From positions 2,411,877-2,443,876 of the forward strand of contig OY781919.1 in the NCBI GenBank assembly GCA_963677215.1: a stretch of DNA of 32,000 bases. Reading direction: 5' to 3'. Below the pieces are notes generated by a model. That model saw only the letters and a list, made by a program, of their open reading frames with translations. It did not search any database and was not told where the DNA came from. Shown here piece after piece: positions 1,886 through 20,434 of this stretch (position 1 is its first letter; every line of letters begins with the position of its first letter). Made by a program: the position numbers and the translations under genes. The stretch comes from Geopsychrobacteraceae bacterium. GTDB lineage: Bacteria; Desulfobacterota; Desulfuromonadia; Desulfuromonadales; Geopsychrobacteraceae.

Positions 1886-3604
1886 TCAGTCGTTATCGGG
1901 TTGATGCGCAATGGCCATGAATTTATCCGGATCATCGCCGGTGTCACTGGTTAGTGCGGTAACGACAAGCAGGACGATGGCGGAAGCGATGACACCGAAG
2001 AGCCCTGGTCCGCCGCCGACAGGCAAGCCGACAATGGTGTAACCGGGACCTTTGGCGAAGAGCAGAATAATGAAGATCACAGAGACGACGAGTCCGGTGA
2101 GGATACTGGCCATGATCGCCTGTTTCGTGGCGCGTCTCCACCAGAGTGTTGCGCACATGGCCGGGAAGACGGCGCTTGCGGCGATACCGAAGGCCAGCAT
2201 GACGAGCCAGGCTATATTTTCACCCTTCAGAAAGACGGCCAGGCAGACGGCAATTGCGGACATGGCCAGGGTGGTGAGCTTGGCGATGCCGAGTTCCTGT
2301 TTCTCGGTGGCATTCCTGTTGATGTAGACCTTGTAGAGATCGTGACTGACCGAAGAGGCCACGGTGATCATGAGTCCGGCTGAGGTGGAGAGGATCGCCG
2401 CGACGGCGCCAGCGGCACCGACAGCCATCAGCCAGGTGCCACCGACACGGAAGCTCATTTCAAGAACGGCCATATTTTTGGCCAGGCCGACACCGAGTGT
2501 GCCCTGTGATATCCAGGTGACCAGTTTTGGATAGATACCGGGGAAGAGCAGGAAGCCGAGGATGATGGCTGCCAGGTAGAAGAGCCCGAGAGCGACGATA
2601 CAGAGGGCGACGCTCTTTTTGGCAGCTTTGGCACTTGGAACGGTGAAGAACATGATGAGGATATGCGGCAGACCGGCGGTTCCGAAGACCAGGGCGACAA
2701 CCGTGGAAATCATGGCCAGGGTGCTGGACGTCTTGACGCCGATGGTCATGGCACTCTTGGCATCAGGCATCATTTGGCGGGCAACCTCGATGGCCTGGTC
2801 CGGAGGCAGGTTCCTGATGGCTTCGACTACGGCCATGTCCTTGCCGGCCAGCAGCGGCGGCACGATCTCTTTGGCCATTTCAAAAATCTGCAGGAAGTTG
2901 CCGTGCCCCACTTTAAAAAAGGCCAGGGTGATCAGAACGACCATCGTACCCCAGAGAAACAGGGCCTGGACAACCTGATTGTACAGGGTGGCCTTCATGC
3001 CACCGAAAATGATGTAGATACACATCAGAATGCCGAGGCCGATGGTCACCCAAACGAAGTTCCAGTGCAGCAGAAGTTCGAAGAGCAGGCCGGCACCGAG
3101 CATCTGCGGAACCAGGTAGAAGGTTGAGATGATGACTGTACAAAGCATGACGCACAGCTTGATGCGATCATCGTTGAAACGACTGTTCAGGGCTCCGGCA
3201 ACGGTAAAGGAACCGATGTTGCGCAAGGGGCCTGCAATAAGCAGCAGAACGGCCATATAACCGCCGAAGAAGCCAATGGAGAGCCAGATGGAGTCGAGGC
3301 CGTAAACGCCGATATCGCCTGCGCAACCGAGGAAGCTGGCAGCGGAAAGATAGCTGCCGGTCATGGCGATACCGACCTGAACCCAGGGTACGCCCTTGCC
3401 GGCAACATAGAAGTCACTGGTGGATTTCATGGTGCGGCTTGTCCACCAGGTAATGACGATACTGACAAGGACGAAGAACAGAATAAAGCCAACGACGATG
3501 GGGATGTTCAAAGTCGCCTCTTCTTGTCCAGGGGCTGCAAAGGCTTGCAGCGGAGAGCTCAGGGCAACGATTAGAAAGGCAAATTGTCTAAGAGCTTTTG
3601 GCAT
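1886..3604 (-). CDS. actP: Sodium:solute symporter family, ActP-like cation/acetate symporter
   Basis: ORF 1886..3739 with likely start at internal ATG 3604 (MPKALRQFAFLIVALSSPLQAFAAPG... signal-like N-terminus); 'TSDFYVAGKGVPWVQVGIAMTGSYLSAASFLG' and 'MFFTVPSAKAAKKSV' are typical of ActP-like SSS transporters. Confidence 0.85.
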   Translation of the reverse strand: MPKALRQFAFLIVALSSPLQAFAAPGQEEATLNIPIVVGFILFFVLVSIVITWWTSRTMKSTSDFYVAGKGVPWVQVGIAMTGSYLSAASFLGCAGDIGVYGLDSIWLSIGFFGGYMAVLLLIAGPLRNIGSFTVAGALNSRFNDDRIKLCVMLCTVIISTFYLVPQMLGAGLLFELLLHWNFVWVTIGLGILMCIYIIFGGMKATLYNQVVQALFLWGTMVVLITLAFFKVGHGNFLQIFEMAKEIVPPLLAGKDMAVVEAIRNLPPDQAIEVARQMMPDAKSAMTIGVKTSSTLAMISTVVALVFGTAGLPHILIMFFTVPSAKAAKKSVALCIVALGLFYLAAIILGFLLFPGIYPKLVTWISQGTLGVGLAKNMAVLEMSFRVGGTWLMAVGAAGAVAAILSTSAGLMITVASSVSHDLYKVYINRNATEKQELGIAKLTTLAMSAIAVCLAVFLKGENIAWLVMLAFGIAASAVFPAMCATLWWRRATKQAIMASILTGLVVSVIFIILLFAKGPGYTIVGLPVGGGPGLFGVIASAIVLLVVTALTSDTGDDPDKFMAIAHQPDND

Positions 3605-3837
3605 TATTTTGACCTCCAGAACCAAATGATCATGATGATCCATGAGACGGGAAAAACGAGCAAGGAAAGCAGTACTCCAAGTGGCAGCCCGAGTACGGGT
3701 AGGTAGGCAATATCCTTGAACGTCGGCGTCTGGATACATGCCGAAACCAGGTAGAAAATAAAAAAGATGAAAAACAAACTGAAATTGAATAACGCCTTTT
3801 TCTTTAATGCATTATTGGATGCTGAACCAGGTGTCAT
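3604..3837 (-). CDS. Small two-TM membrane protein, DUF485 (YjcH-like) partner of the acetate symporter
   Basis: MTPGSASNNALKKKALFNFSLFFIFFIFYLVSACIQTP...LPLGVLLSLLVFPVSWIIMIIWFWRSK; start at 3837 preceded by AGGAGGAATT; stop overlaps the actP-like start (TAATG); location upstream of an ActP-like gene. Confidence 0.7.
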   Translation of the reverse strand: MTPGSASNNALKKKALFNFSLFFIFFIFYLVSACIQTPTFKDIAYLPVLGLPLGVLLSLLVFPVSWIIMIIWFWRSK

Positions 3838-4124
3838 AATTCCTCCGTTAGTAATAATTGTTTTCCAACTTAATGAATTATCTAGTTCCAACAGGAAGAG
3901 GCCTTAATACTTTACCGGAAAATTTAAAGTTTACAGGGGAAATGTTGATCTAGGTTTAAGAATTGTAAAGATAATCCGGAGGTTTGAGGCTTATTAACTA
4001 CTCAATGGTAAAAAAGTAGATTAGTGGTAATGGGGATTTGATGCAGATTTTGGATGTGCCACACCGAGATACGTTCTGTAATAACGCCCTCGTGACCTTG
4101 TTGTACGGAAATGTGTTTATGCAG

Positions 4125-4155
4125 AAATGGCCTCTCATGTGGTGAGAGGCCATTT
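4125..4155 (-). terminator. Perfect 13-bp stem (AAATGGCCTCTCA / TGAGAGGCCATTT), 5-nt loop; probable terminator of the 4240-5472 gene
   Basis: Direct inverted repeat 4125-4137 and 4143-4155, located 85 bp downstream of the minus-strand stop at 4240. Confidence 0.6.
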
Positions 4156-4239
4156 GTTGTAGTGTATTTACCCTCGTTAAGTACGGTGGTAACGTCTTTA
4201 TATTGTTTTCTTGTGCGGTATGGGTATCTGTGTGCTCAT

Positions 4240-5472
4240 CTACGTCTTAAAGTTAATATCAAAGGGGTATCCTGGATTAGAAATAATATTTTTCAGGGTT
4301 TTGAGGCTGGTTTCAAAGCTATTGTCATTGTTGAAAATTGTATATTCGGTCGGGCACTGTCTGGAAAAATGTTCAAACATCATCTGATCATATAACCGAT
4401 GCCCGGCGGCCGTAATTTCCTGCTTTCGGCCTTGGATTGTTTCATAGCTGGCAATGCAATGGATTGTCGGTGTTCTTTGGCCCAGAAAGTTTGAAACCGG
4501 ATAGAATTTTGACCAGCGTGGCTTGTCTGTCTGGCGGTGCAGACATAAAAAATCAGCCAGGCTGCGGTCATAAATCATAATCTTTTTACGGTTTGAAAGT
4601 TTTTTCAGTGTGAGCCCCAGGCAGGCACGCAGATAGATCAGTCCGGAAAACCTTTCATCAAACAGATCCCGGTTGGGGAAGATCGGATGTAACAGAAGTA
4701 ACGATATTTTGTAGAGCATGGATAGGCGGTAGAGGCGTTTTCCGCGAAAAGATTTGGCAGGTGGGGAGGTTCTCTTGGCCAATGCCATTACCAGGGAGGT
4801 TTTCCCGACCCCGTCACAGCCCATGATACACAGCATGTTTCGACCACCCTGCAATCGCTTTCGGCAGTTATTTCTCAAGGGAGTTTGCTTCGGAGGCAGG
4901 GCTGCTAAAATCAATGTCAATGTTTTCTGCAGATCCTGCTTGTTCACCTGCCCATTTTCAACCGTCCGTTGCAGAGCTTCCAGGACCAGAGTTTCGCTGC
5001 ACCTGCCCAGATAATCTTCCAGTCTCTGGTGGATGTAATTCAAGGACAGGTCTTTATTCTTTAGCGCTAGATGGTGCAGGTAAATACTGGCTTCAATATC
5101 AACCTTAATGCGGCAGATAGAGAGATCATCGTTGTTTTCGGCAGCTGCTTGCAATGCCTCATAGGTCAGGGGAACTTTTGTCCCGAACAGTTGAGGAAGA
5201 ACATACCACAGATCGAGCCTCAGGCTCTTCAGCCCGTCCCGTGAATATAAAGTCAGCATTTTTTTGCCAAATTTTCGGGCTCCGATGTGGGCGTGACAAT
5301 AACCTTTTTTGACCCAGGTGTAGGCCTCAGCAGTTAGCGCATTTATCGATTCTTCACTGGCCAGGAAATCAATATCGCCACGGTTGATGTCAGCAGCGGA
5401 AATAAGGTCTCCGCGTAGTTGAATCAACCGCCAGGGGCCTGACAGAATGTTGCTGATACATTTTTCTATCAT
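4240..5472 (-). CDS. Orphan protein: N-terminal nucleotidyltransferase-like region plus C-terminal thymidylate-kinase-like P-loop domain
   Basis: Walker A 'MLCIMGCDGVGKTSLVMALAKR', TMPK-like 'IMIYDRSLADFLCLHR'; N-terminal 'LRGDLISAADINRGDIDFL ... LRLDLWYVLP' resembles NTase-fold acidic motifs. Confidence 0.6.
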   Translation of the reverse strand: MIEKCISNILSGPWRLIQLRGDLISAADINRGDIDFLASEESINALTAEAYTWVKKGYCHAHIGARKFGKKMLTLYSRDGLKSLRLDLWYVLPQLFGTKVPLTYEALQAAAENNDDLSICRIKVDIEASIYLHHLALKNKDLSLNYIHQRLEDYLGRCSETLVLEALQRTVENGQVNKQDLQKTLTLILAALPPKQTPLRNNCRKRLQGGRNMLCIMGCDGVGKTSLVMALAKRTSPPAKSFRGKRLYRLSMLYKISLLLLHPIFPNRDLFDERFSGLIYLRACLGLTLKKLSNRKKIMIYDRSLADFLCLHRQTDKPRWSKFYPVSNFLGQRTPTIHCIASYETIQGRKQEITAAGHRLYDQMMFEHFSRQCPTEYTIFNNDNSFETSLKTLKNIISNPGYPFDINFKT

Positions 5473-7437: not shown

Positions 7438-8586
7438 TCACTTTGGCTGACTGAGCTGTTCCCGGGCGTTCTCTTCCATCTGTTCTATGGCAATGAGAAA
7501 CGATTCGGTCAGTTGCGGGTGAAGCAGTTGCCCGCTGCTCTCGGTCATGATCTGCTTGATCTGGGCAAAGGTCAGCGGCTCCCTGTAGGTCCGTCTGGTA
7601 CGCAGCGCGTCATAAACGTCGGAGATGGTCGTCATGTAACTGCAGGTATTGAGTTGCCAATGGTCCGGAGTCTGGGGATAGCCTTTGCCGTTGTAGCCGA
7701 TATGGTGTTCGTAGGCGTTGACCACGGCCAGCTTCGGCGCGCCCGGGCAGCGCAACAGATATTCGGCGCCAAGTTGCGGGTGACGTTGCATCTGGGCCCA
7801 CTCTTGAGGATCCAGCTTGGTTTGCTTGTTGAGAATGTCCGGTGAAATGAACATCTTACCGACATCGTGGAGCATCGCTGCGATGCCGATCTGATTGAGG
7901 ATCTGGCCTTCAAAGCCGAGCAGCCGGGCCTGCGCCAGATTGAGCAGGCAGATGTTGGTTGAGTGGATGTAGGCATATTCATCCATGGAGCGCAGCGGTG
8001 CCAGGGCCAGCAGGGCCGAGCTGTGGGTGCTGAAGGCTGAGACAAAATCGTTGACCAGCTCAGAGATCCCGCCGATGTCGACATGTTTGCTGCGGCCGGC
8101 GGAAGCCTGAACCTCGTAAAACCGGTCTTCACCGTGCAGGCGGATTTCTGCCGCTGTTTCGGCCTGGGGAGAGGGGGGCTTCTGTCTGCTGCGCACGGCA
8201 ACACGGCCAAAACGGATGTGTTCCGTTTTTCTCGGTTCTACTTTGCGGCTGTGCTTGCTCAGGGTTGTCGCCAGTCTGATCATCTCTTCACTAGAGACCC
8301 CGGAGCTGATTTCCAGAAAGCTGATCTGCTGGGCTGTCAGGGTTTCAATCAGCCGGTCTGTCATCATGTTGCGCGGCACCGGCTGGTCATTGAAGATCAG
8401 CTCGTTGTTGACTATCTTGAAAGTGACCATACTGTGATCATTCATCAGCAGGCGCATTTCTTCGCGAGCCTGCTGGCAGAGGTGATGGACCTGAGGGTGC
8501 TCGCTGTCGTAGAGGGAGATATTGGCCGCCGCAGTTGTGATCTGGCGGATAAAGGCGGCCAGGTATTTCTGTTCCTTGAACGTCAT
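7438..8586 (-). CDS. HD-GYP-like phosphohydrolase, module copy 1 (HD1)
   Basis: C-terminal domain: YAYIHSTNICLLNLAQARLLG, AAMLHDVGKMFISPDILNK, RHPQLGAEYL, AYEHHIGYNGKGYP, TISDVYDALRTRRTYREPLT. N-terminal ~120 aa is a separate domain shared with the neighbouring genes. Confidence 0.85.
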   Translation of the reverse strand: MTFKEQKYLAAFIRQITTAAANISLYDSEHPQVHHLCQQAREEMRLLMNDHSMVTFKIVNNELIFNDQPVPRNMMTDRLIETLTAQQISFLEISSGVSSEEMIRLATTLSKHSRKVEPRKTEHIRFGRVAVRSRQKPPSPQAETAAEIRLHGEDRFYEVQASAGRSKHVDIGGISELVNDFVSAFSTHSSALLALAPLRSMDEYAYIHSTNICLLNLAQARLLGFEGQILNQIGIAAMLHDVGKMFISPDILNKQTKLDPQEWAQMQRHPQLGAEYLLRCPGAPKLAVVNAYEHHIGYNGKGYPQTPDHWQLNTCSYMTTISDVYDALRTRRTYREPLTFAQIKQIMTESSGQLLHPQLTESFLIAIEQMEENAREQLSQPK

Positions 8587-10715
8587 TTTTGCCCCCGATC
8601 TGTCAGGCGCTGCAGCTGCTTTTCGACCAGTTCCCTTTCGGTCTTGTCGCGACCGCTCTGCAGGGAATGCAGAAGCGGTAGCACGCTGCGTCTGGGATAG
8701 CCACCCAGGGAACGGATGATTTCCAACTGAAAATCTTTTTCCCGGCGGCGGCGGAGCAGTTTCTTCTGCAGCAGTCTGGCGAGGACCGGGATGGTCTGTG
8801 GTTTGCCGATCATGCTTAGGGTCTCAAGGGTTTTTCTGCGGATCTGCAGATCCGGATCGCGATTGTGGTCGATCTGCAGCAGGAGATGCAGTTGGGCCAG
8901 AACCTTGCCGTCATGACTCTGGTCGGCGATTTCAACGGCTGCGGAGATCGATTCCCGGTTTCCACCCGAGAGGTCTTTGAGTAATTGCCGGTTGGCCATC
9001 ATCGGGTCGAAGCGGAAGATGATGCGCAGTGCTTCCTGGCGGACCTTGGGGTGCTCATGTGTTGCGAGGGGGCGGATTTCCCTGATCGGAATGGTTTCCT
9101 TGTCGAGCTTCGAGAGGATCAGCAGTACGTTGCGGACCAGATACCAGCGCTGATCCTTCAAGGTCTGGGTCAGTAGCTGAGCTGCTTTTTTGCCGAGCTC
9201 CTCCAGCAGGCGGACCCAGATCCTGCGTTTGGAGAGTTGCTTTTCTTTCCCGAGGCGGTTGATCAGCAGTTCGGCATAAGGCTCGCCAACCTCGAAGATG
9301 TAGGCACTGATCTCTCCCCCCTTTTCCGCGCCCCAGATTTCGACATGGTCAAGTACGTCGGACATGAAGAGCTCACTGGTCTGCAGGGCCAGGACGGTTT
9401 CATCCAGAAAGCGGGCATTGGCTTTGCCGCTGTAGAGGTATTCGGCCCAGTTGACAAAAATTTCGCGCAGCGTCGTGAAGTCCCCTGTATCCAGGTAGAA
9501 TCTGGCCATTTCGGTCAGGTTATGTTGCAGGCTTTTTTCCGCTTCGGAATCGACACCGTTACTGAGCATGTTGAAGATGATATTGACGCACTGATTTTCA
9601 ATCGCCAGGGTTTTCAGGCTGTTTCTCAGCTTTAGTGCGACATGTTCCGGAAGGGAACTTGTCATCTGCTGGTTGAGGATGTTTTTCAGGGTGGTCTGGT
9701 ACACATCGGGCACAAACTGGCTGTGGCTGTCTTCGAGCAGGAGAATGTCGATCTGCGCATTCAGAACATCGGTGTCGATTTTTTCAATGTCCAGTGCAGC
9801 CGGAGTCGTCAATATATCGTCGTTGTCGGCAAATTCCTCGAGCAGGTCAATAAGTCTGGCCGAGACTGTCTCCTTGTTTTGGGATTGACGATGAATGGCT
9901 GTTTTAAGCAGATGCTGCGGAAACGAATTGAGGAACTGCGAGGTCAGGTCGGGGTGTCCGGACAGGGCATTGAGGATGCTGTCGGTGAATCTTTCCTGGA
10001 TCTGCGGGTGCAGTTGCTCAACGACTTCAGCGACCTGAAGGGGAACCTCTGCTTCTTCCCTCGGTTCAGACGCAAACCTGGAAATCAGATTGCTGATCAG
10101 CGGATCCAGGTTGTCCGTGTGGCATTTTCCCTGGTTGATGGCTCTGGCGATCTCGGCACTTTCGATGGTATCGGAAAGACTATGTTTCTCATTGAGAAGT
10201 TCTGTGATGAAATCGTTCCAGGGGGAATCGCTGGAATCGCCGTCATCGGCCTGAAAGGCTCCAAAGTCGACCAGAACGATCTGAATCTGGTGGATCCCCT
10301 GTTGCTGAAGCTGTTTTGGCAGTTCCTGATTGACTCCTGTTTCGTTGCCTTCTGTGCTGAGGAGCTGATAGAAGCCGAGTACCTCTTTGGCGGAGAGGTT
10401 CCGGAAAAAGCGGATCGAGGCGATTCGGTATGAAGACAGGAATTGGGCGAAGTCGCGGATGGCTCGATTGCCGGCCTCCTGCCACTGCCCTTCAAAAAGA
10501 ATATTGTCGGGTGCGATCCCGAGGTGGATGTCCTGCCCGGACTGACAGGTTTGGGCCAAGGCGCGCAGAACCGCATCACAACTCTGGGTTAGTTGTGGGT
10601 GCCCTGGCGGATACAATTTCAGCTGACGCTGAAAAATATTGAGGTCCTGGATGAATCCGGAAAGCTGGTGGCGATTGTTTGCCGTGGCAGTTTTGGATTC
10701 TCCTGACATTAACAC
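8583..10715 (-). CDS. Large helical/HEAT-like repeat protein, module copy 1 (HEAT1); likely GTG start
   Basis: 710 aa; C-terminal repeats such as 'HEHPKVRQEALRIIFRFDPMMANRQLLKDL', 'DPDLQIRRKTLETLSMIGKPQTIPVLARLLQ', 'EIIRSLGGYPRRSVLPLLHSLQ'; GGAGG upstream of GTG 10715; 4-nt ATGA overlap with HD1. Confidence 0.8.
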   Translation of the reverse strand: MLMSGESKTATANNRHQLSGFIQDLNIFQRQLKLYPPGHPQLTQSCDAVLRALAQTCQSGQDIHLGIAPDNILFEGQWQEAGNRAIRDFAQFLSSYRIASIRFFRNLSAKEVLGFYQLLSTEGNETGVNQELPKQLQQQGIHQIQIVLVDFGAFQADDGDSSDSPWNDFITELLNEKHSLSDTIESAEIARAINQGKCHTDNLDPLISNLISRFASEPREEAEVPLQVAEVVEQLHPQIQERFTDSILNALSGHPDLTSQFLNSFPQHLLKTAIHRQSQNKETVSARLIDLLEEFADNDDILTTPAALDIEKIDTDVLNAQIDILLLEDSHSQFVPDVYQTTLKNILNQQMTSSLPEHVALKLRNSLKTLAIENQCVNIIFNMLSNGVDSEAEKSLQHNLTEMARFYLDTGDFTTLREIFVNWAEYLYSGKANARFLDETVLALQTSELFMSDVLDHVEIWGAEKGGEISAYIFEVGEPYAELLINRLGKEKQLSKRRIWVRLLEELGKKAAQLLTQTLKDQRWYLVRNVLLILSKLDKETIPIREIRPLATHEHPKVRQEALRIIFRFDPMMANRQLLKDLSGGNRESISAAVEIADQSHDGKVLAQLHLLLQIDHNRDPDLQIRRKTLETLSMIGKPQTIPVLARLLQKKLLRRRREKDFQLEIIRSLGGYPRRSVLPLLHSLQSGRDKTERELVEKQLQRLTDRGQK

Positions 10716-10814
10716 CCTGGTTCCTCCCCCCGTATACTGTTTTATTCAATAAATCCTAATTTTATGAGAATAGACCCTTTTGCAGTTTTTTAGAAGAGGT
10801 TCATTGATGTGTTG

Positions 10815-11951
10815 TTAAGTTTTTGCCATGTCCCGATCGAGCTCGCTGATCGTTCCCAGAAAATTGTAGGTCAACTGCGGATGCAGTTTGTTGCCCGCAA
10901 GGTTGAGCATGATCGAAATGATCTGGTTCAGGTCCAGGGACTCTTCGTAGGCACGATGGGTGCGCATGGCGTCATAGGTATCTGATATGGCCGTCAGGTA
11001 GGAACTCAAGTGCTGCAGCCATGGCCTTGAGGTCTGCGGGTAGCCGGCATTATCAAACCGCATATGATGTTCATAGGCGGTAATCACGGCAAGTCTGGGT
11101 ATCCCCGGGCAGCCAGTCAGATATTCGGCGCCGAGACGCGGGTGTTGCTGCATGATCTCCCATTCGGCCCCAGTCAGGGCTTCGTTTTTGGTCAGGATCT
11201 CCGGCGGAATGAACATTTTTCCAACATCGTGCAGCATTGCCGCGATACCGATGTCGTTGAGCAGTTGTCCTTCTATGCCGAGCATTCTGGCCTGGGCGAG
11301 GTTGAGCATGCAGATGTTGGTTGAGTGGGTGTAAGTATACTCGTCCATGCTGCGCAACGGCGCAATCGCCATCAGGACATCGTTCTGTGAATCGAAGGCA
11401 TTGATGAAACCGGAAACGATCTCGGAGACACCAGCGATATTCAGGGGTTTGTTCTTTCTGATCGTCTGGTAGAGGTCCATGATGCTGTCGGCTTCAGACT
11501 CGGCAATCCAGGTCAGTGGGGATACTGCCGGGCCTGATTCTTCGCCCTTGAGACGGACCTCAATCTTGCCATAGCGGATGTGCTCGGTATTGGTTGGTTG
11601 GTGCGTAGAGTTCTGGATTTTGCTGAGCAGTAGGGCAAGGCCAAGCAGTTCGTCGGCATAGATGCCATCCAGGATCTGCAGGTGTGAGACTCCGCTGCGA
11701 TTCAGGGCGCTGACAAGACGTTTGACGGCATTGCTCTGCTCGACGGGCTGATTGTCAAAAATCAGCCGGCTATCGATAACTTTCAGGACGATTTCATTAT
11801 GTTTTTTGAGCAGCTCATGGGCGATCTGCAATGCTTGGTTATTGAGGCGCAGCACCTGCCGATGGTTGGCGTGATAGAGGGATGCATTGGCGGATGCCGT
11901 GGTCAACAGGCGTAAAAAGGTCTGAAGTTGTTCCTGTCTTGAGCCGCTCAT
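10815..11951 (-). CDS. HD-GYP-like phosphohydrolase, module copy 2 (HD2), paralog of 7438-8586
   Basis: YTYTHSTNICMLNLAQARMLGIEG, AAMLHDVGKMFIPPEILTK, QHPRLGAEYL, AYEHHMRFDNAGYP, AISDTYDAMRTHRAYEES; collinear with HD1 along its whole length. Confidence 0.85.
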   Translation of the reverse strand: MSGSRQEQLQTFLRLLTTASANASLYHANHRQVLRLNNQALQIAHELLKKHNEIVLKVIDSRLIFDNQPVEQSNAVKRLVSALNRSGVSHLQILDGIYADELLGLALLLSKIQNSTHQPTNTEHIRYGKIEVRLKGEESGPAVSPLTWIAESEADSIMDLYQTIRKNKPLNIAGVSEIVSGFINAFDSQNDVLMAIAPLRSMDEYTYTHSTNICMLNLAQARMLGIEGQLLNDIGIAAMLHDVGKMFIPPEILTKNEALTGAEWEIMQQHPRLGAEYLTGCPGIPRLAVITAYEHHMRFDNAGYPQTSRPWLQHLSSYLTAISDTYDAMRTHRAYEESLDLNQIISIMLNLAGNKLHPQLTYNFLGTISELDRDMAKT

Positions 11952-14095
11952 AGGTTTGTTCTCCGTTTTTCCTGCACCTCTTTGGCGGCGTTTTTGTAAG
12001 GCCCTTTGGCCATTTCATCAAGCAGTTTGTCGGCTCCTGAGCCGGGAAATGTCAGCAGCGCATTGAGGATCTGCTGCTGCAGGGACTTCAGGTGGCGGGA
12101 CTTGAAAAGTTTCGGTCCGCTCAGCAACAGCCGGCGGAAGATGGTCAGCGATTCCGGCCGTCCACAGCGGGAGAGGGCTGCGATCACGGCTTCGACGTAA
12201 TGCAACTGCTCGGCGGTTTCGATACTCATCTCCAGCTGCCTGTGCAGCTGACTGAAGACGCCCGAATCCTGACTCAAGTGCACCAGCCCAAGAGCCGCGT
12301 TTCGCGCACTGAGATCGGCGTTCTGCAGTTCCGTGATCAGCAACCGGTTGGCTGTCGCCGGATTGCAGCGGAACAGGTTGCGGATGACCTCGGCCCTGAC
12401 TCTCTGATCGGGATGGTCTGCGTACTTCAGGTTGGCCTTGATGCTCGCCGGGGTCTGCTCTTCGCCTAAGACAATCAGCAGATTGCGTAGCAGATACCAG
12501 GGTTCAGGCCTGAGGGCCTGGAGGACCTTCTGCTGAACGTCCCCGTCAATCTTTCTGAGCAGGCCCATCCAGAGCATGCGTTCCTTCTGTTCTGTCGCGT
12601 TGGAAAGACGGTCGATGATCGGGTCGCAGTATGGTTCGCCGACGAACAGAATATAGTTGCTGATCTGCTCCCATTTCTGCTCTTCCCAGAGCTCAAAACT
12701 GTCGAGAATGTCGTTCATGAAACTGGACTGGGTGTGACCGGCAATCAACTGCTCATCGAGAATGCTGGTCTGGGCATGGTTGCTGTACAGGTAGTTGTAC
12801 CAGTTCCTGAAGACCGCCCGCAGGCTGATGAAATCACCGGTATCGGCAAAGAAACGGGAGAGCTCCATGAGGCTCTGCTGGATGTGAGATTCCTGCTCCT
12901 TGTCCAGCGGAGAGAGCAGCAGCTCGAAAATGACTGCCGCGAAATGGTGTTCGATCGACTGCTCCTCCATGTCCTGCTTCAGTTGCAGCTTTTCCGCTTC
13001 TGACATGTGGCCATGGAGGTCGCCGGCAAGCATGGTGTTGAGGGCCTGCTGGTAGCTGTCGGGAAGAAAGAGATCCTCCTGTTCTTCGCTGAACAGGGTC
13101 TCCAGCCGGGCTTTGACGACGCTTGATTCCATGCGTGGTGAGTTGAGGCGGATCTTGTTTTTCTGGTCAGTATCCGAGGCGGCCAGAACCTCGACCAGCC
13201 CTAGCAGACGCTGGGAGATCTGCAGCTGTGAACCCTGATTCGAGGCAAAGCTGTCGTGCAGTAGCCGGGGGGAAATCTTTTTCAGTGCGTTCTCTGCCTG
13301 GTCCTGATGACGGTCGATCACCTTGAGGGTGCTTTCCAGGAATGCCTGCCGGGCCCCGGGCTCAAGCTTGAGCAACAGCTCATTGAAGACCTGATCCGCT
13401 TCCGATTCCGGAGTGGTGATCAGCCGTTTTTCAACATAGTTGGACAGGGATTGCCGGCACTGCTCACGATCATCGCGGGTCCCTTTGAACCTGCTGTTGA
13501 TGATTTCGGCAATGACTGACAGGTTGCTGGAAATTTCCGAGAATCCCAGGTCGAGGATTCCCTGCTGCATGCCATAGATGAAATTTTCCCAGAGCAGTTG
13601 CTCTTCTTTCGCGTCGCCTCTTCCGACCTGAAACGCATTGTAGTCGATGGTGATGATCTGGATATGACGAATCTGGTGCTGTTCGAGCAGTTGGGCAAAA
13701 CCGCCGGAATTTTCAATGCTGATCCGGTCCGAACAGAGCAGCTTGCAGAAACAGAGCAGCTCTGCTTCTGTCAGCCCTTTTGCGAAATTGATGGTTGCAA
13801 TGCCAAGCTCGGCAAAGAAAGCGGCGAAGTCCCTGTTGGCGGGGTCGTTTTTGTCAAGCCAGGTCTGCTCAAAGAGGATTCCGGACGGGGATATGCCCAG
13901 GGTGAGTAGAGGAAAGTTCTCCATAATCAGCGCGAGTAGCGACATGGCTTTTTCGATGCTGGCCGTGATCTGGGGGTGCTCATCCGGATAGAGGGCCAGG
14001 TTGCGCTGTGCTGTTTTCAGTTCCTGCAGAAAAACAGTCAGCAGAGGACGATCCTGTCTCCTGGTGTCAGTGCTTGATATGGCGTTCCGGTTCAA
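11948..14095 (-). CDS. Large helical/HEAT-like repeat protein, module copy 2 (HEAT2); likely TTG start
   Basis: 715 aa, collinear with the 8583-10715 protein (e.g. 'YADHPDQRVRAEVIRNLFRCNPATANRLLITEL'); GAGG 6 nt before TTG 14095; 4-nt ATGA overlap with HD2. Confidence 0.78.
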   Translation of the reverse strand: MNRNAISSTDTRRQDRPLLTVFLQELKTAQRNLALYPDEHPQITASIEKAMSLLALIMENFPLLTLGISPSGILFEQTWLDKNDPANRDFAAFFAELGIATINFAKGLTEAELLCFCKLLCSDRISIENSGGFAQLLEQHQIRHIQIITIDYNAFQVGRGDAKEEQLLWENFIYGMQQGILDLGFSEISSNLSVIAEIINSRFKGTRDDREQCRQSLSNYVEKRLITTPESEADQVFNELLLKLEPGARQAFLESTLKVIDRHQDQAENALKKISPRLLHDSFASNQGSQLQISQRLLGLVEVLAASDTDQKNKIRLNSPRMESSVVKARLETLFSEEQEDLFLPDSYQQALNTMLAGDLHGHMSEAEKLQLKQDMEEQSIEHHFAAVIFELLLSPLDKEQESHIQQSLMELSRFFADTGDFISLRAVFRNWYNYLYSNHAQTSILDEQLIAGHTQSSFMNDILDSFELWEEQKWEQISNYILFVGEPYCDPIIDRLSNATEQKERMLWMGLLRKIDGDVQQKVLQALRPEPWYLLRNLLIVLGEEQTPASIKANLKYADHPDQRVRAEVIRNLFRCNPATANRLLITELQNADLSARNAALGLVHLSQDSGVFSQLHRQLEMSIETAEQLHYVEAVIAALSRCGRPESLTIFRRLLLSGPKLFKSRHLKSLQQQILNALLTFPGSGADKLLDEMAKGPYKNAAKEVQEKRRTNL

Positions 14096-14135: not shown

Positions 14136-14165
14136 AGTATAACATTTATTTTTTTCAGGGTTAAA
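14136..14165 (-). promoter_or_regulatory. Possible sigma70-like promoter for the HEAT/HD operon
   Basis: Minus-strand TATACT (14141-14136) with TTTAAC (14165-14160) at 18-bp spacing, upstream of the start at 14095; weak -35. Confidence 0.25.
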
Positions 14166-14257
14166 CAAGAAAGGCATTTGTCAGGACTATTGCATTTCTG
14201 CGCCATTGCGTGCTAGATTTCCGCCGATATGGACACTCATTATTTAATGAATGGCTT

Positions 14258-15223
14258 ATGAGCCCGCAGACGCATTTTGATGTTGGTGATGCGGACCTGG
14301 CCCAGCAGCTTTTTGGCCGGCAGAATAAGCATCTAAAACAGATAGAAAAGAAACTCGGCATTCGGGTCGGCAGCCAGGGGACGGTTATCCACCTCTCCGG
14401 CGATGAGGCTCAGGTCGGGGTTGCCAGGCGCCTGCTTGAAGAGCTGTGCACCCTGCTTCGCGAGGGGATGCCGCTCTACCCGGCTGATGTCGATTACGCC
14501 ATTCGCATCCTCTCTGCGGATTCTTCCGCGTCTCTGAAAGATATCTTCTTTGATACTGTCTTCGTTTCGGCCCGCAACAAGATGATTGCGCCGAAAAGCA
14601 TCGCCCAGAAGAGTTATGTTGACAATATTCGTGAAAACCATGTTGTCTTCGGTGTCGGCCCGGCCGGAACCGGCAAGACTTATCTGGCCATGGCGATGGG
14701 CGTGGCCTCCCTGCTGCGTAAGGAAGTCAGCCGGATCATGCTTGTCCGACCTGCTGTCGAAGCCGGGGAAAAGCTCGGTTTTTTGCCTGGCGATCTGGCC
14801 GAGAAGGTCAATCCGTACCTGCGTCCACTCTACGATGCCCTTTATGACATGCTCGATTTTGACAAGGCCAGGGAGTTGGTTGAAACCGGTATTGTCGAAG
14901 TAGCCCCTCTGGCCTTCATGCGCGGCCGGACCCTGAATGACGCTTTTGTCATTCTTGACGAAGCGCAAAATACCACCGCAGAACAGATGAAGATGTTTCT
15001 CACCCGCCTCGGTTTTGGTAGCCGGGCCGTCATTACCGGGGATGTGACCCAGGTCGATCTGCCCCGGGGGCAGCAATCGGGGCTGCTGCATGCGATGGAA
15101 GTGCTGGTCGGTGTGCGCGGGATTGAGTTTACCTATTTCAGCGATCGGGATGTCGTTCGTCATCCGATTGTGCAAGCGATTGTTCAGGCCTACCAGAGAG
15201 CTGAAAAGCACGAAGACTCCTGA
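14258..15223 (+). CDS. phoH: PhoH family ATPase (YbeZ-like)
   Basis: 'VVFGVGPAGTGKTYLAMAMGVASLL', 'AFVILDEAQNTTAEQMKMFLTRLGFGSRAVITGDVTQVDLPRGQQSGL'; ORF opens at 14210 but ATG 14258 (MSPQTHFDVGDADLAQQLFG) fits better. Confidence 0.93.
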   Translation: MSPQTHFDVGDADLAQQLFGRQNKHLKQIEKKLGIRVGSQGTVIHLSGDEAQVGVARRLLEELCTLLREGMPLYPADVDYAIRILSADSSASLKDIFFDTVFVSARNKMIAPKSIAQKSYVDNIRENHVVFGVGPAGTGKTYLAMAMGVASLLRKEVSRIMLVRPAVEAGEKLGFLPGDLAEKVNPYLRPLYDALYDMLDFDKARELVETGIVEVAPLAFMRGRTLNDAFVILDEAQNTTAEQMKMFLTRLGFGSRAVITGDVTQVDLPRGQQSGLLHAMEVLVGVRGIEFTYFSDRDVVRHPIVQAIVQAYQRAEKHEDS

Positions 15224-15266
15224 TGCGAGCTCTGGTGGAGGGCGGCCTTCATCTTTTTGAGGACAT

Positions 15267-17678
15267 ATGACGAAAGACGAGAAACAGAAAGCCCTGCAGA
15301 GGCGAAGCGCCTTTTTCAGCGATGGTGTTCAGGGTTTGCGGAACCGCAAGGGGGCCAACCTTGGAGGCTGGCTGCTGCTGATCGTTGCCGTGCTGTTGAC
15401 CTTTATCATCATACCGAAGGGTGGGCTGATTCCGGATTACTATGCTCCCGGCGATGTCGCTTCCCGCAATATCAAATCGCCCCGCGATCTGCTGGTCGAA
15501 GACCTGCCTTTGACAGAAGCCAAGCAGCTTGAGGCTGCCAACGCGGTTGCTCTGGTCTATCAGTTTGATGTGGCTGGTGGGAGTCAGGCTGTTGAACGGC
15601 TGGACCGGGGGCTGCGCGGCCTGTTGAATTATCAGCTCAGCAGCAGGGCCCTAAATGGACAGGATGTTCTTCCCCAGCTGGAGACCGACCTTGGCATCCC
15701 GCTGACCAGTGAAGAGTTTTTGCCTTTGCTGAAGCTGCCCCTGACAATCGAGCTGATCGACCAGATCAGGTTAGCTTTAGAGACTGTTTTTCACCGGCCG
15801 ATCGTTGCCAATCAGCAGATCTATCAGAGCGACCAGGACAAGGGACTGGTGGTTCTCGATTGGGCGAGTGGAGAGCCGCTTGAGTTGAAGATTGGTGATC
15901 GGGTGATTGGTCTCACCCAGGCTCTGAGCGAAGTTCAGACACAATTGGGGCAGCTCATGGGGCTTGCGGAGGGGCAGCGCCAGGTTCTGGCGCGCCTCGT
16001 TCAGCAACTGCTGCGGCCCAGCCTGATCTACGATCAGGATGAAACCGAAGCACGACGCCAGTTGGCCCGCGAGCAGGTCGCGCCTGTTCTGTTTCAGATC
16101 AAGAAGGGGGAGATGATCGTCCGCGAAGGGGAACGTATCTCCGCCGATCAGATCCTCAAGCTCAAGGCTATTCGTAATTCCGGACTCGACAACCGTAACC
16201 TGCAGACGGCCGCGGGGCTGTTGATCTGCATCCTGCTGCTGATCTATGTCGGCTATCATTTTGCCAACGGCAACATCAGTAAGTTTCGTCCAGATCAGCG
16301 TGACCTGCTGTTTCTGTCGAGCGTTTTTCTGGTCTATTTCGTTCTGGTCAAGGTCTCGATCCTGATTGTTTCCGCTATCGGCAACAGTTTTACCTACATC
16401 GATTCAACAGCTTACCTCTATGCGGTCCCTTTCGCGCTGGGTGCCATGCTGGTGCGGATCGTTCTCAATTCCGAGACCGCGTTCATCTTTTCCGTCGGCT
16501 GTGCCGTGCTGGTCGGTATTATCATGGGCAATAGCCTGCTGATGGCTCTGTTTGTCCTGATCGGCAGTCTGGTCGGGGCGCACGGAGTCCGGCACTGTCA
16601 GCAGAGGACCAGGCTTTATCGGGCCGGGCTGTGGATCGGCCTGACCAACGCCGCTTTGCTGCTGGGCATGCATTTTCTGTCGGGACGGGTTTTCGAGCTG
16701 CAACTGCTGTGGAAGCTTGGTCTCGGGTTTTTCGGTGGTATCGCCAGTGCCGTTTTTGTCAACGGCACGGTCCCGCTGGTCGAATCCTTCTTCAAGTACA
16801 CGACCGATATCAAGCTGCTTGAACTGGCCAACATGAACTCACCGGTATTGCGCCAGCTGATGATCGAGGCTCCCGGCACCTATCATCATTCGATCCTGGT
16901 CGGCAATTTGGCCGAGGCCGGGGCCGAAGCGATACGGGCCAATCCGTTGCTGGCTCGGGTCGCAGCCTATTATCATGATATCGGCAAGATCAAGAAACCG
17001 CTCTATTTTATCGAGAACTCTGGCGGTCAGCGAAACAAGCATGACAAACTGGCGCCGTCGATGAGTGCCCTGATCCTCACCTCACACGTCAAGGACGGAG
17101 TGGAACTGGCCCGCGAGCACAAGCTGGGATCGGAGCTGATGGAAATCATCCAGCAGCATCACGGCACCTCGCTGATCAAATTTTTTTATGACCGCGCCAA
17201 GAACCTGTCCGACCCGGAGGTCCATCAGGTTGATGAGCGTGATTACCGCTATCACGGGCCGAAACCTCAGACTCGGGAAGCGGCGCTGATTATGCTGGCC
17301 GATGCGATCGAGGCCGCCAGCCGGACACTGACCGATCCGACCCCGGCACGGATTCAGGGGATGGTGCAGAAGCTGATCAACAATATCTTTATTGATGGCC
17401 AGCTCGATGAGTGTGATCTTACCCTGAAGGACCTGAATCTGATCGCCAGGAGCTTCAATCGTGTGCTGTCGAGTTCATTCCATCATCGCGTCGATTACCC
17501 CGAACCCGTACATATCGTCAAGGACAAGGCCGAGCCTGAGGACAAGGTGGCCGTCAAAGAGAAAGTGAAACAGAAGAATGCGAATTCAGATCGACAACCG
17601 GCAGAACAAACAACGGATTCTGAAGCGTCCCCTGCGCAAGATAGCCCAGAAGATCTTAGACGTCTCGGGATATCCTAA
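15267..17678 (+). CDS. pgpH: 7TM-HD family phosphohydrolase, PgpH/YqfF-like
   Basis: 803 aa; N-terminal extracytoplasmic region, multi-TM block, HD domain 'GTYHHSILVGNLAEAGAEAIRANPLLARVAAYYHDIGKIKKPLYFIEN ... IIQQHHGTSLIKFF ... ALIMLADAIEAASRTL'. Confidence 0.9.
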   Translation: MTKDEKQKALQRRSAFFSDGVQGLRNRKGANLGGWLLLIVAVLLTFIIIPKGGLIPDYYAPGDVASRNIKSPRDLLVEDLPLTEAKQLEAANAVALVYQFDVAGGSQAVERLDRGLRGLLNYQLSSRALNGQDVLPQLETDLGIPLTSEEFLPLLKLPLTIELIDQIRLALETVFHRPIVANQQIYQSDQDKGLVVLDWASGEPLELKIGDRVIGLTQALSEVQTQLGQLMGLAEGQRQVLARLVQQLLRPSLIYDQDETEARRQLAREQVAPVLFQIKKGEMIVREGERISADQILKLKAIRNSGLDNRNLQTAAGLLICILLLIYVGYHFANGNISKFRPDQRDLLFLSSVFLVYFVLVKVSILIVSAIGNSFTYIDSTAYLYAVPFALGAMLVRIVLNSETAFIFSVGCAVLVGIIMGNSLLMALFVLIGSLVGAHGVRHCQQRTRLYRAGLWIGLTNAALLLGMHFLSGRVFELQLLWKLGLGFFGGIASAVFVNGTVPLVESFFKYTTDIKLLELANMNSPVLRQLMIEAPGTYHHSILVGNLAEAGAEAIRANPLLARVAAYYHDIGKIKKPLYFIENSGGQRNKHDKLAPSMSALILTSHVKDGVELAREHKLGSELMEIIQQHHGTSLIKFFYDRAKNLSDPEVHQVDERDYRYHGPKPQTREAALIMLADAIEAASRTLTDPTPARIQGMVQKLINNIFIDGQLDECDLTLKDLNLIARSFNRVLSSSFHHRVDYPEPVHIVKDKAEPEDKVAVKEKVKQKNANSDRQPAEQTTDSEASPAQDSPEDLRRLGIS

Positions 17679-18036
17679 GGGCGAACTGTCGATCGTTCTG
17701 CTCGACAACGCCGGGATTCAGGAGGTCAACCGCGATTACCTGGGGCGCGACTGGCCGACCAACGTCATTTCCTTTTCGATGCTTGAAGGTGAGGGGGCCG
17801 GTATCCAACCCGATCTGCTCGGCGATGTGATTATCTCGACTGAACGTACGGCCAGCGATGCCGACGAGGCCGGGATCCCTTTTGAGCATGAACTCTGGTT
17901 CCTGCTACTGCACGGCATCCTTCATCTGATCGGTTATGATCATGAGCGGGGTAGTGAAGAGGACGCTGCGCAGATGGAAGCCAGGGAAAAAGAAATCTTT
18001 TCCATACTTGTTAACGAATTTTCTATTTCTGCATAG
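17578..18036 (+). CDS. ybeY: Endoribonuclease YbeY
   Basis: 152 aa; 'IQIDNRQ' N-terminus, 'RDWPTNVISF', metal site 'HGILHLIGYDHE'. Confidence 0.93.
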   Translation: MRIQIDNRQNKQRILKRPLRKIAQKILDVSGYPKGELSIVLLDNAGIQEVNRDYLGRDWPTNVISFSMLEGEGAGIQPDLLGDVIISTERTASDADEAGIPFEHELWFLLLHGILHLIGYDHERGSEEDAAQMEAREKEIFSILVNEFSISA

Positions 18037-18059
18037 ATTGCAAGGAGCTCGAAGATCTG

Positions 18060-18920
18060 GTGGATAGTGACAATGCGCAAGATTCTGACAGTTGGTTGAA
18101 GCGTCTGACCGATAAACTGGCCCTGCGTCCCAAGGCCAGCACTGAAGAAGATCTGCATGAAATGATCGATGCCTCGGAACAGCAGGGGATCATCGATGAA
18201 GAAGAAGGGGAGATGCTCCAGTCGATTCTGGAGTTGGATGAAACAATCCTCCGGGAGATCATGGTGCCGCGGACCGATATGGTCTGTGTCGACAGTGATG
18301 CTCCTCTCAGCGCTGTACTTAAAGCTATTCTCAAGACCGGTCATTCCCGGATTCCCGTCTATCGTGGCAATATCGATAACATCATCGGCCTGGTCTACGC
18401 CAAGGATCTTTTGCGTTACTGGGGGAGAGAGATTGACAATATCGTCCTCGGCGAAGTTCTGCGTCCTCCCTATCTGGTCCCCGAATCGAAGACCGTCAGC
18501 GACATGCTCAAGGAGTTTCAGGAGACCCGCGTCCATATCGCCATCGTCATCGACGAGTATGGCGGTACCTCCGGGCTGGTGACGATTGAGGACCTGCTCG
18601 AAGAGATTGTCGGCGATATTCAGGATGAGTACGACCGAGAAGACGAGTGGCTGATTGAAGAACCTGACGGAACCCTGCTGGTTGATGCCCGCCTGAATAT
18701 CGAAGAATTTGAAGAATATTACGAAGTTGAGGTTCCTCGCGAAAAATTCGATACCATCGGTGGTTTTATCGTCGAGCATTGCGGCCGGGTTCCGGCTGTT
18801 GGCGAGCGAATCAAGGTCGAGAATTTCGAGATGCTGATCGAGCAGGGGAACCAGCGGGTCATTCGCCAGGTGCGGATCTTTCCGCAGCAGGTCGCTGAGG
18901 CAGAAGGAAGCGACTCTTGA
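18060..18920 (+). CDS. corC: CorC/HlyC family CBS-domain protein (YbeX-like); GTG start
   Basis: '[54 protein letters not shown]', '[34 protein letters not shown]', CorC_HlyC C-terminal domain. Confidence 0.9.
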
Positions 18921-20434
18921 AGTATTTTTCCCAGATTGACCGGACCATCCTGATTTCTGCTCTTTCCGGGGTGCTGCTGGCGCTTGCTTTTCCTCGCCCC
19001 GATTTGTTCTGGCTGGCCTGGATCGGTCTGATTCCTCTGCTGCTGGTCATGGGGAAACGTCCTTTTGCCAGTGGTTTTTCTGCCGGAATCGCCTTTTTTG
19101 CCGTCGTTCTCTACTGGCTGAATATCGTGATGACCAACTACGGTGGTCTGATGCCGGTCTTTTCCGCGATCGCCTACCTGATGCTGGTCATCTATCTGGC
19201 GTTCTATTTCGGGATCGCCACCCTGACCAGCTGGGGGTTGAAAAAGCGTTACCGGATTCCACTACTGCTCAGTTTTCCCTTTTTCTGGGTTGCTCTCGAA
19301 TACCTGCGCGGTCTGATTTTCAGCGGGTTTCCCTGGGCTCTGCTCGGTTATTCCCAGCAGGATTTTTCGCTGGCCATCCAGAGTGCCGATGTGACGGGGG
19401 TGTATGGCGTCAGTTTCATCCTGGTTGCGGTCAATTGCGCCCTGGCCTGGCTGATTGTTGAACCGCGCAAACGGAACGCTTGGATAGGCGCCGTGGTTGT
19501 CGCTGTGCTGCTGGCCGGCCACCTTGGTTATGGGCACTGGTGTGAGCGGACAAAAAGTGATGAGCGCGAGGAAAGCCTGCGCATCGCCCTGATTCAGGGT
19601 AATATTGAGCAGGGGCAGAAGTGGTTGCCGGAAAATCGTCAGCAGACGGTCGATTTCTATCGTGATCTCTCCTTGCAAGCAGCCGAGCAGCCAGTTGACC
19701 TGTTGCTCTGGCCGGAAGCGGCGACCCCGTTTTTTCTGCAGGATGACGGTGCGCTGCAGCGCCAGGTCAAGGCCGTGCCTGGTGAGGCGCAGGCCGCACT
19801 GCTGGTCGGTAGCCCGTCTTATGAAGCAGATGGTGAAGGGCAGGTGAGCTATTACAACAGCGCTTATCTGTTCTCGCCGCAGGGGGAAAAGATCGGTCGC
19901 TCCGACAAGCTGCACCTGGTGCCGTTCGGGGAATATGTGCCGCTTAAATGGTTACTCGGTTTCCTTGATAAGCTGGTCGTCGGCGCCGGCGATTTCTCGT
20001 CCGGAAAATTGCAGCCGCTTGTTTATGCTGACCACAGGCTCGGAGTGCTGATCTGTTATGAAGCGATCTTTTCCGAGCTGGCCAGGACCCAGGTGCGCAA
20101 AGGGAGCGATCTGCTGATCAATCTGACCAATGATGCCTGGTTCGGCCGCTCCTCGGCACCTTATCAGCACCTTGCCATGGTGCGTTTTCGCTCCATCGAG
20201 AACAGGGTGTGGACGGCGCGCACGGCCAATACCGGAATCTCGGCCTTTATCGCCCCTTCGGGAAAAGTCATCAGCGCGACCCCGCTGTTTGAACGCCTGC
20301 AGCAGCGTGGCATCGTCGGGCTTGGGGCAGAGCAGACCTTTTATACCCGTTACGGTGACGTTTTTGCCCTGGCTTGCCTGATGCTCTTCTGCTTTGCCTG
20401 CTTTGCTCTGACGCGCAAGAAAAACAAAGACTGA
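18917..20434 (+). CDS. lnt: Apolipoprotein N-acyltransferase
   Basis: 505 aa; multi-TM N-terminus then nitrilase domain 'IALIQGNIEQGQKW...LLLWPEAATPFFL...KLHLVPFGEYVP...VLICYEAIFSELAR...LINLTNDAWFGRSSAPYQHLAM'. Confidence 0.95.
   Translation: MKYFSQIDRTILISALSGVLLALAFPRPDLFWLAWIGLIPLLLVMGKRPFASGFSAGIAFFAVVLYWLNIVMTNYGGLMPVFSAIAYLMLVIYLAFYFGIATLTSWGLKKRYRIPLLLSFPFFWVALEYLRGLIFSGFPWALLGYSQQDFSLAIQSADVTGVYGVSFILVAVNCALAWLIVEPRKRNAWIGAVVVAVLLAGHLGYGHWCERTKSDEREESLRIALIQGNIEQGQKWLPENRQQTVDFYRDLSLQAAEQPVDLLLWPEAATPFFLQDDGALQRQVKAVPGEAQAALLVGSPSYEADGEGQVSYYNSAYLFSPQGEKIGRSDKLHLVPFGEYVPLKWLLGFLDKLVVGAGDFSSGKLQPLVYADHRLGVLICYEAIFSELARTQVRKGSDLLINLTNDAWFGRSSAPYQHLAMVRFRSIENRVWTARTANTGISAFIAPSGKVISATPLFERLQQRGIVGLGAEQTFYTRYGDVFALACLMLFCFACFALTRKKNKD

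Follow-up and report, generated by a model that had tools for sequence, protein, structure and literature searches.

Why would a bacterial chromosome carry, twice and back to back, a gene for a large HEAT-like protein followed by a gene for an HD-GYP-like phosphohydrolase? We examined this question in a 32,000-nucleotide (nt) stretch from a Geopsychrobacteraceae bacterium (assembly GCA_963677215.1, contig OY781919.1, positions 2,411,877 to 2,443,876; hereafter the window). Its minus strand holds four open reading frames (ORFs) which, in transcription order and with lengths in amino acids (aa), encode large partner A (11948-14095, 715 aa, TTG start), HD-GYP partner A (10815-11951, 378 aa, ATG start), large partner B (8583-10715, 710 aa, GTG start), and HD-GYP partner B (7438-8586, 382 aa, ATG start). 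These gene pairs suggest an unstudied two-subunit signaling enzyme. Of the two enzyme classes that degrade cyclic di-GMP (c-di-GMP), HD-GYP phosphodiesterases are the one less well understood, and the control of their activity is largely unknown. While the HD-GYP catalytic domain is already known, what appears to be new here is a widespread, obligate two-subunit architecture together with an undescribed domain that the partners share. A preliminary description, made from the sequence alone, had set out the four ORFs and a 4-nt ATGA overlap of stop and start codons in each pair; coordinates, lengths, and strand are all as it gave them, and both junctions (minus strand, 11948..11951 in pair A and 8583..8586 in pair B) read ATGA. 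The peptides that it quoted had been assigned to the wrong copies, since AAMLHDVGKMFISPDILNK belongs to the ORF at 7438-8586 and AAMLHDVGKMFIPPEILTK to that at 10815-11951.

Both partners begin with what profile comparison and structure prediction indicate to be the same ~130-aa alpha/beta domain, previously undescribed and here called the N-domain. The N-termini of the partners look alike by eye (FLQELKTAQRNLALYPDEHPQ versus FLRLLTTASANASLYHANHRQ), and likeness between them was marginal when single sequences were compared (E values of 0.003 and 0.023). When profiles were compared with hhalign, one made from 88 large-protein N-termini and the other from 83 HD-protein N-termini, the probability was 99.5% and the E value 2.6e-23 over 128 columns. 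Furthermore, the N-terminus of the large protein matches an Elusimicrobiota HD partner directly, and the AlphaFold2 (AF2) models of both proteins place the secondary-structure elements of this domain in identical order, H-H-E-E-H-E-H-(H-H)-E. Motifs in the joint alignment include LYPxxHP, GIxxIxFxxGxxxxELxxLxxLL, and GGxxxLLxxxxxxHI. On the minus strand of the window, the predicted N-domain occupies 13646..14053 in large partner A (residues ~15-150; LYPDEHPQ, with Y36, P37, and H40 conserved), where blockwise model confidence (pLDDT) is mostly 88-97. The corresponding segments are 10272..10676 in large partner B (LYPPGHPQ), 11562..11951 in HD-GYP partner A (residues 1-130; LYHANHRQ, with Y26 and H30), and 8197..8586 in HD-GYP partner B (LYDSEHPQ). 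A hidden Markov model (HMM) of the N-domain, which recovered large partner B at an E value of 1.5e-45 and HD-GYP partner B at 4e-38, matched just large proteins and HD partners, in all loci and in the window.

No Pfam family was found for the N-domain among 26 members, and it matched no natural sequence in the PDB, the sole PDB match being an artificial designed protein. Two domains known from the N-termini of other HD-GYP proteins were considered and ruled out at the sequence level. For the GAF domain of PmGH, an HD-GYP protein of Persephonella marina (PDB entry 4mcw), there was no Pfam match among the 26 N-domains at an E value of ≤1, and the 4mcw profile alignment was confined to chain residues 173-358. 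For the DUF3391 domain of Bd1817, no PF11871 match was obtained in the same set at the same threshold, and the order of secondary structure differs: DUF3391 consists of four beta-strands followed by two long helices, whereas in the window N-domain two long helices come first and a beta-hairpin next.

We asked how faithfully the two genes are kept together. One genome per species was scanned, giving 76 loci with relatives of the large protein, and in every one of these whose contig continues, an HD gene follows it directly in the same orientation. The loci that seem to break the rule stop at a contig end, and two of them (L073 and L077) still carry the truncated start of the HD partner. Beyond Desulfuromonadales, the pair was found in Nitrospirota/Thermodesulfovibrionales, Armatimonadota, Actinomycetota, Coriobacteriia, and Elusimicrobiota. 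Independent contigs encoding large proteins of only 26% and 21% identity in unrelated neighborhoods also hold the pair, again with the 4-nt overlap. In the reverse direction, starting from HD homologs, the large gene was upstream in five of five cases. Across about 85 loci from at least six phyla, order and adjacency are strict, and we conclude that the pairing of large gene and HD gene is obligate. The preliminary description had named large genes that usually lack an adjacent HD gene as the observation to be feared for its model; the neighborhood search, the independent contigs, and the reverse search all found the opposite. The exact 4-nt overlap is present at 65 of 84 junctions (77%), and 83 of the 84 fall between -23 and +16 nt. 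One report (PMC6728339) documents termination-reinitiation coupling at such overlaps. An exhaustive profile search for large-protein relatives returned 476 cluster representatives at an E value of ≤1e-30, nearly all of them ~720 aa long.

When neighbors within 5 kb were clustered across 29 distant loci, no third gene was consistently linked to the pair. The idea of a conserved third gene was rejected, since the clusters showed just synteny particular to certain lineages (sigma-54-type response regulators, histidine kinases, GlnRS). The one plain exception to tight coupling is the second pair in the lineage of L024 (12398-12476) and L083 (5211-7325), in which the genes are separated by a 77-nt gap with no overlap and the large protein is 678 to 685 aa long.

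HD-GYP partner A consists of the shared N-domain, a helical linker, and the HD-GYP domain, the last of which spans residues 191-378 (10818..11381, minus strand) and contains H209, H241-D242, K245, H270, H295-H296, G303-Y304-P305, and D324 in alignment with PmGH. The equivalent domain of partner B (7441..8004, minus strand) carries the motif HHIGYNGKGYP and has its catalytic residues intact. Both HD proteins match Pfam HD_5/HD. In an alignment of 36 HD partners from at least six phyla, both window copies included, H209, H241, D242, G244, K245, H270, H295, H296, and G303-Y304-P305 are invariant and D324 is nearly so. The features by which an HD-GYP domain is recognized are laid down in PS51832 / IPR037522 and in the refined model of Galperin & Chou. 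Accordingly, we looked for the His and Asp metal ligands, which are present and aligned to the PmGH residues; for the conserved Lys of the HDxGK motif, which is the invariant K245; and for three C-terminal helices past the HD core, which the AF2 model of partner A places at residues 315-330, 341-351, and 358-377, with the alignment to PmGH extending to residue 371. The model of the HD partner rests on a shallower alignment. A census of HD-GYP architectures names this Lys (Lys235 in 4MCW numbering) as c-di-GMP binding in PmGH. Compared with the census motif HHExh(D/N)GxGYP, the window reads HHMRFDNAGYP in copy A and the motif given above in copy B, such that HH, D/N, and GYP are kept; the whole family has another residue in place of the Glu, and partner A has Asn where the motif has Gly after D/N.

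The nearest solved relatives of the HD domain are PmGH, V-cGAP3 (5z7c), PA4781 (4r8z), and DvhD (9rbz), all of them active HD-GYP phosphodiesterases. PmGH is the top solved relative of the catalytic half (E value of 1.5e-21 with a single sequence and 2.3e-45 with a profile; Foldseek E value of 1.9e-8), and Foldseek matches of partner A comprise 4mcw, 3tm8, 4r8z, and 9rbz. These findings bear out the label of HD-GYP-like given in the preliminary description: the domain is a genuine HD-GYP with all catalytic residues present. The small subunit is thus a putative active phosphodiesterase acting on c-di-GMP or on 3'3'-cyclic GMP-AMP (3'3'-cGAMP). Geobacter-type bacteria use 3'3'-cGAMP signaling. 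V-cGAP3, the 3'3'-cGAMP-specific HD-GYP of Vibrio cholerae, is the second-best profile match (E value of 2.3e-42), and because its score and that of PmGH are almost equal, the two candidate substrates are indistinguishable on this basis.

No Response_reg (receiver) domain was found by Pfam in the HD proteins, which consequently lack the REC-HD-GYP arrangement of the RpfG family, and the NCBIfam model for NosR-type response-regulator phosphodiesterases matches their HD-GYP part only (59.6 and 66.5 bits against a cutoff of 400). In Armatimonadota, Actinomycetota, Elusimicrobiota, and some Nitrospirota (L050, L056-L058, L060, L062, L066-L069, and L076), the HD partner is 440 to 500 aa long and has an extra conserved C-terminal region of ~90 aa (GxxPxGxxVxLxxGExxVV...RPxV...; alignment columns ~440-540), which has no Pfam match and is not found in the window's proteins.

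The AF2 model of large partner A (mean pLDDT of 85.1) has three parts, namely, the alpha/beta domain at residues ~10-150, a poorly defined helical middle at ~151-380, and a confident solenoid at ~380-715. On the minus strand, the variable middle, which has the lowest model confidence, lies at 12956..13645, and the C-terminal alpha-solenoid of HEAT/PBS-lyase-type repeats lies at 11951..12955 (residues ~381-715; block pLDDT mostly >90). Pfam HEAT_2 (PF13646) covers only residues ~520-660 of the large proteins (523-586 in partner A) and scores 43.5 bits in partner B and 26.0 bits in partner A against a gathering threshold of 27.7; distant orthologs reach 111.6 bits (E value of 2.3e-32), and HEAT_PBS also matches. 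The preliminary description had called the whole protein HEAT-like. This applies to the C-terminal half, as HEAT_2 and the predicted solenoid indicate, while residues 1-380 are not HEAT. Among PDB sequences, the solenoid is matched by alphaRep proteins, and Foldseek matches of the large protein include PP2A-A, importins, CAND1, and alphaRep. The modeled solenoid thus looks like a generic HEAT scaffold for binding proteins, of the kind seen in the PP2A A subunit. D530, R532, W533, R537, and N538 are nearly invariant within it. We also considered whether the middle region might be a decayed HD-GYP domain, that is, a pseudoenzyme, which was ruled out by hhalign against HD-GYP (probability of 0.6%, E value of 0.1). 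In Nitrospirota/Thermodesulfovibrionales, large proteins of ~540 to 565 aa (L051-L055, L059, L061, L063-L065, and L070-L072) keep the N-domain and the solenoid with the middle mostly gone, which implies that the middle is dispensable for the conserved core.

The two pairs in the window are related far above chance, in agreement with the collinear paralogy noted previously. The large partners are 30% identical and collinear over their full length (E value of 4e-104), and the HD partners are 46% identical (E value of 6e-125). Between copies A and B, identity is 36% and 37% in the N-domains of the two partners, 34% in the solenoid, 23% in the middle region and linker, and 59% in the catalytic domain. 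The neighbor-joining tree of the large proteins and that of the HD proteins recover the same clades with nearly the same topology: clade A contains all pairs in position 1, while pairs in position 2 belong either to clade B (the kind in the window) or to clade C (the kind in Malonomonas), and clade C groups with the single pair of L040, L045, and L048. These congruent trees indicate that the bicistron was duplicated as a unit, as had been proposed from the window alone, and that the partners co-diverged. The duplication is ancient and possibly occurred more than once; Desulfuromusa genomes, that of Desulfuromusa kysingii DSM 7343 included, have one pair, whereas the window, the relative L003, Malonomonas rubra (DSM 5091), and some ten other genomes have two. 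Ratios of nonsynonymous to synonymous substitution rates (dN/dS) against L003, which is 88% identical, are 0.138 for large partner A, 0.060 for HD partner A, 0.125 for large partner B, and 0.136 for HD partner B, showing that all four are functional genes under purifying selection. In one genome (L046, 6935-9023), the large gene in position 1 is split into two overlapping ORFs of 507 and 194 aa, either because a frameshift has made it a pseudogene or because this metagenome-assembled genome was assembled wrongly at that point.

On balance, we cautiously favor a model in which each pair provides the two subunits of one heteromeric cyclic-dinucleotide phosphodiesterase. The N-domains of the large and small subunits would form a pair, a common behavior of homologous domains, and would in this way tie the HD-GYP enzyme to the ~330-residue HEAT solenoid, which may control the activity of the enzyme or dock it onto a target, thereby making its signaling local. 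The 4-nt stop/start overlap would couple translation such that the subunits are made together. After the bicistron had been duplicated, the partners would have co-diverged, their N-domains to the same extent, leaving two insulated holoenzymes per genome. The preliminary description had proposed that the repeat protein scaffolds or regulates its cognate enzyme, and this idea is strengthened because the partners share a homologous N-terminal domain, which that description had missed. A bolder form of the heteromeric model is conceivable but somewhat doubtful: the N-domain would be a new heterodimerization module that builds an asymmetric, PP2A-like bacterial holoenzyme across many phyla, and co-evolved N-domains would insulate the duplicates and maintain two separate local degradation circuits per cell.

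The shared domain could also mean that the two proteins act in parallel without a stable complex. The N-domain would then be a ligand sensor, the HD-GYP protein would degrade the messenger, and the HEAT protein would give a separate output, with both being co-expressed as one response. The census generally treats HD-GYP N-terminal domains as sensors, many of them undefined, and the Tyr/His pair of LYPxxHP is nearly invariant in both proteins, as might be expected of a putative binding site. However, co-regulation by itself does not call for keeping a 4-nt overlap, as 77% of junctions across phyla do, or for genes that stay adjacent and in strict order at ~85 loci, and the equal divergence of the N-domains and the congruence of the trees better fit partners that are obliged to match. 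Given also that no fusion of the N-domain to other outputs was seen in the sequences examined, we consider parallel sensing unlikely. [quoted passage not shown] HD-GYP enzymes need correctly loaded Fe or Mn centers (the PmGH site in 4mcw is trinuclear), enzyme-chaperone pairs are typically tightly coupled genetically, and the repeats belong to the PBS-lyase HEAT type (with HEAT_PBS matches and a faint match to NblB with an E value of 9e-4), a class whose members act on other proteins. It is nonetheless hard to see why a chaperone should carry its client's N-terminal domain; the solenoid showed no conserved Cys/His motif for handling metals, and its near-invariant residues look like the PBS-type HEAT consensus; and characterized HD-GYPs are, according to the census, active without any such factor. 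A maturation role thus seems improbable to us.

Two-gene modules that combine a repeat-protein sensor with a hydrolase effector are common in defense, and the genomic context of this module varies between lineages, which raises the prospect of a toxin-antitoxin or anti-phage system with the HD hydrolase as effector. Against this, PADLOC-DB 2.0 yielded no matches for the large proteins and only chance-level matches to the Cas10 HD domain for the HD proteins (E values of 0.003 and 0.008). Moreover, the HD domain belongs to the signaling HD-GYP type and has both the GYP motif and the conserved HDxGK Lys, and in Geopsychrobacteraceae-like genomes the module has a fixed housekeeping synteny, host-like GC content, and strong purifying selection. 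We regard a role in conflict as highly improbable.

How does the proposed heteromeric phosphodiesterase compare with systems already described? PmGH, with which the window's HD proteins align at the HD, HH, GYP, and Lys residues, has a GAF N-domain that they lack, the profile match ending at the HD-GYP domain, and no HEAT partner of PmGH has been described. Relative to PmGH, the Glu after HH is replaced in the window family and the N-terminal acidic ligand sits one position off. V-cGAP3 differs from the window's HD proteins in being a tandem HD-GYP with another N-terminus and no partner. Members of the Bd1817 / PA4108 family (DUF3391-HD-GYP; structural match 3tm8) likewise combine an N-terminal module of unknown function, a long helix, and an HD-GYP domain. 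For the large protein, CpcE/CpcF and NblB, the PBS-lyase HEAT-like proteins, have the same type of repeat as its C-terminal region but are 200 to 300 aa long and consist of repeats only, without the N-domain, the middle region, or linkage to an HD-GYP gene. The alphaRep designs derive from this same repeat class. The PP2A holoenzyme, in which a HEAT A subunit scaffolds a metal-dependent phosphohydrolase and of which the A subunit is among the top structural matches, offers an analogy in manner of working only: it is eukaryotic, TM scores are <0.33, homology extends just to the repeat fold, the catalytic fold is unrelated to HD, and its subunits have no domain in common.

The preliminary description knew of no described system with this architecture, and the sources consulted agree with it. 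Neither protein is covered by an NCBIfam model, there is no PADLOC model, public sources name the large protein "hypothetical protein" only, and full-text literature searches for papers pairing HD-GYP with HEAT repeats or partner genes returned nothing relevant. The census lists REC-, GAF-, DUF3391-, and membrane-sensor architectures along with many undefined N-terminal domains, and never mentions HEAT proteins. The module defines one of these formerly undefined HD-GYP N-terminal domains, common to the co-encoded HEAT-repeat protein, and would yield two new family or domain definitions for proteins whose present annotation is just "hypothetical" or "HD domain-containing." It may also serve as a specific and testable example of an HD-GYP enzyme to which a noncatalytic subunit is dedicated, and with its natural tandem duplicates one could study how paralogous signaling complexes are kept insulated.

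Some features of the locus concern its expression. The pairs are separated by an AT-rich spacer of 99 nt (10716..10814, minus strand), in which a GGAGGA ribosome-binding site precedes large partner B and a scan of the minus strand found no terminator-like site. An alternative ATG start for large partner B at 10709, two codons downstream of the GTG, would give a protein of 708 aa; the exact 710-aa sequence is absent from the protein collection searched. Promoter and terminator scans returned site counts at chance level in the region, with one plausible sigma-70-like site before the first gene. This candidate promoter, TTAACC-17-TATACT with a TG extension (14136..14164, minus strand), lies upstream of large partner A and, coming from a consensus scan, is weak evidence. 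No Rfam family was found anywhere in the window at gathering thresholds, which rules out a riboswitch or other RNA element known to Rfam as a control of the putative operon.

In Geopsychrobacteraceae-like genomes, the module has a fixed place between a divergent phoH-pgpH-ybeY-corC-lnt cluster and an ABC-F gene. In the window, this cluster is on the plus strand at 14210-20434 (phoH, a 7TM-HD gene encoding a PgpH-like protein of 803 aa, ybeY, corC, and lnt), an arrangement kept in relatives. A second HD-superfamily hydrolase, of the PgpH type (4s1b), thus adjoins the two HD-GYP genes; PgpH-type HD hydrolases degrade cyclic di-AMP. The YbeY ORF (17578-18036) overlaps the end of the 7TM-HD ORF (15267-17678) by ~100 nt, and since the Pfam YbeY match begins at residue 15, the true start is probably further downstream. 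In the divergent relative L079 (2622-4968), a same-strand Rieske / cytochrome b / multihaem cytochrome c cluster ends 33 nt short of the module, which lies directly downstream; this single case may point toward a connection with respiration or electron transfer. Finally, a 410-aa ORF at 4240-5472 (minus strand) has a P-loop-like motif, IMGCDGVGKTS, and matched no Pfam family at an E value of ≤1e-5. It sits in the one low-GC part of the window (0.45 to 0.48 at 3001-5000 versus ~0.55 elsewhere) and may be a horizontally acquired orphan NTPase.

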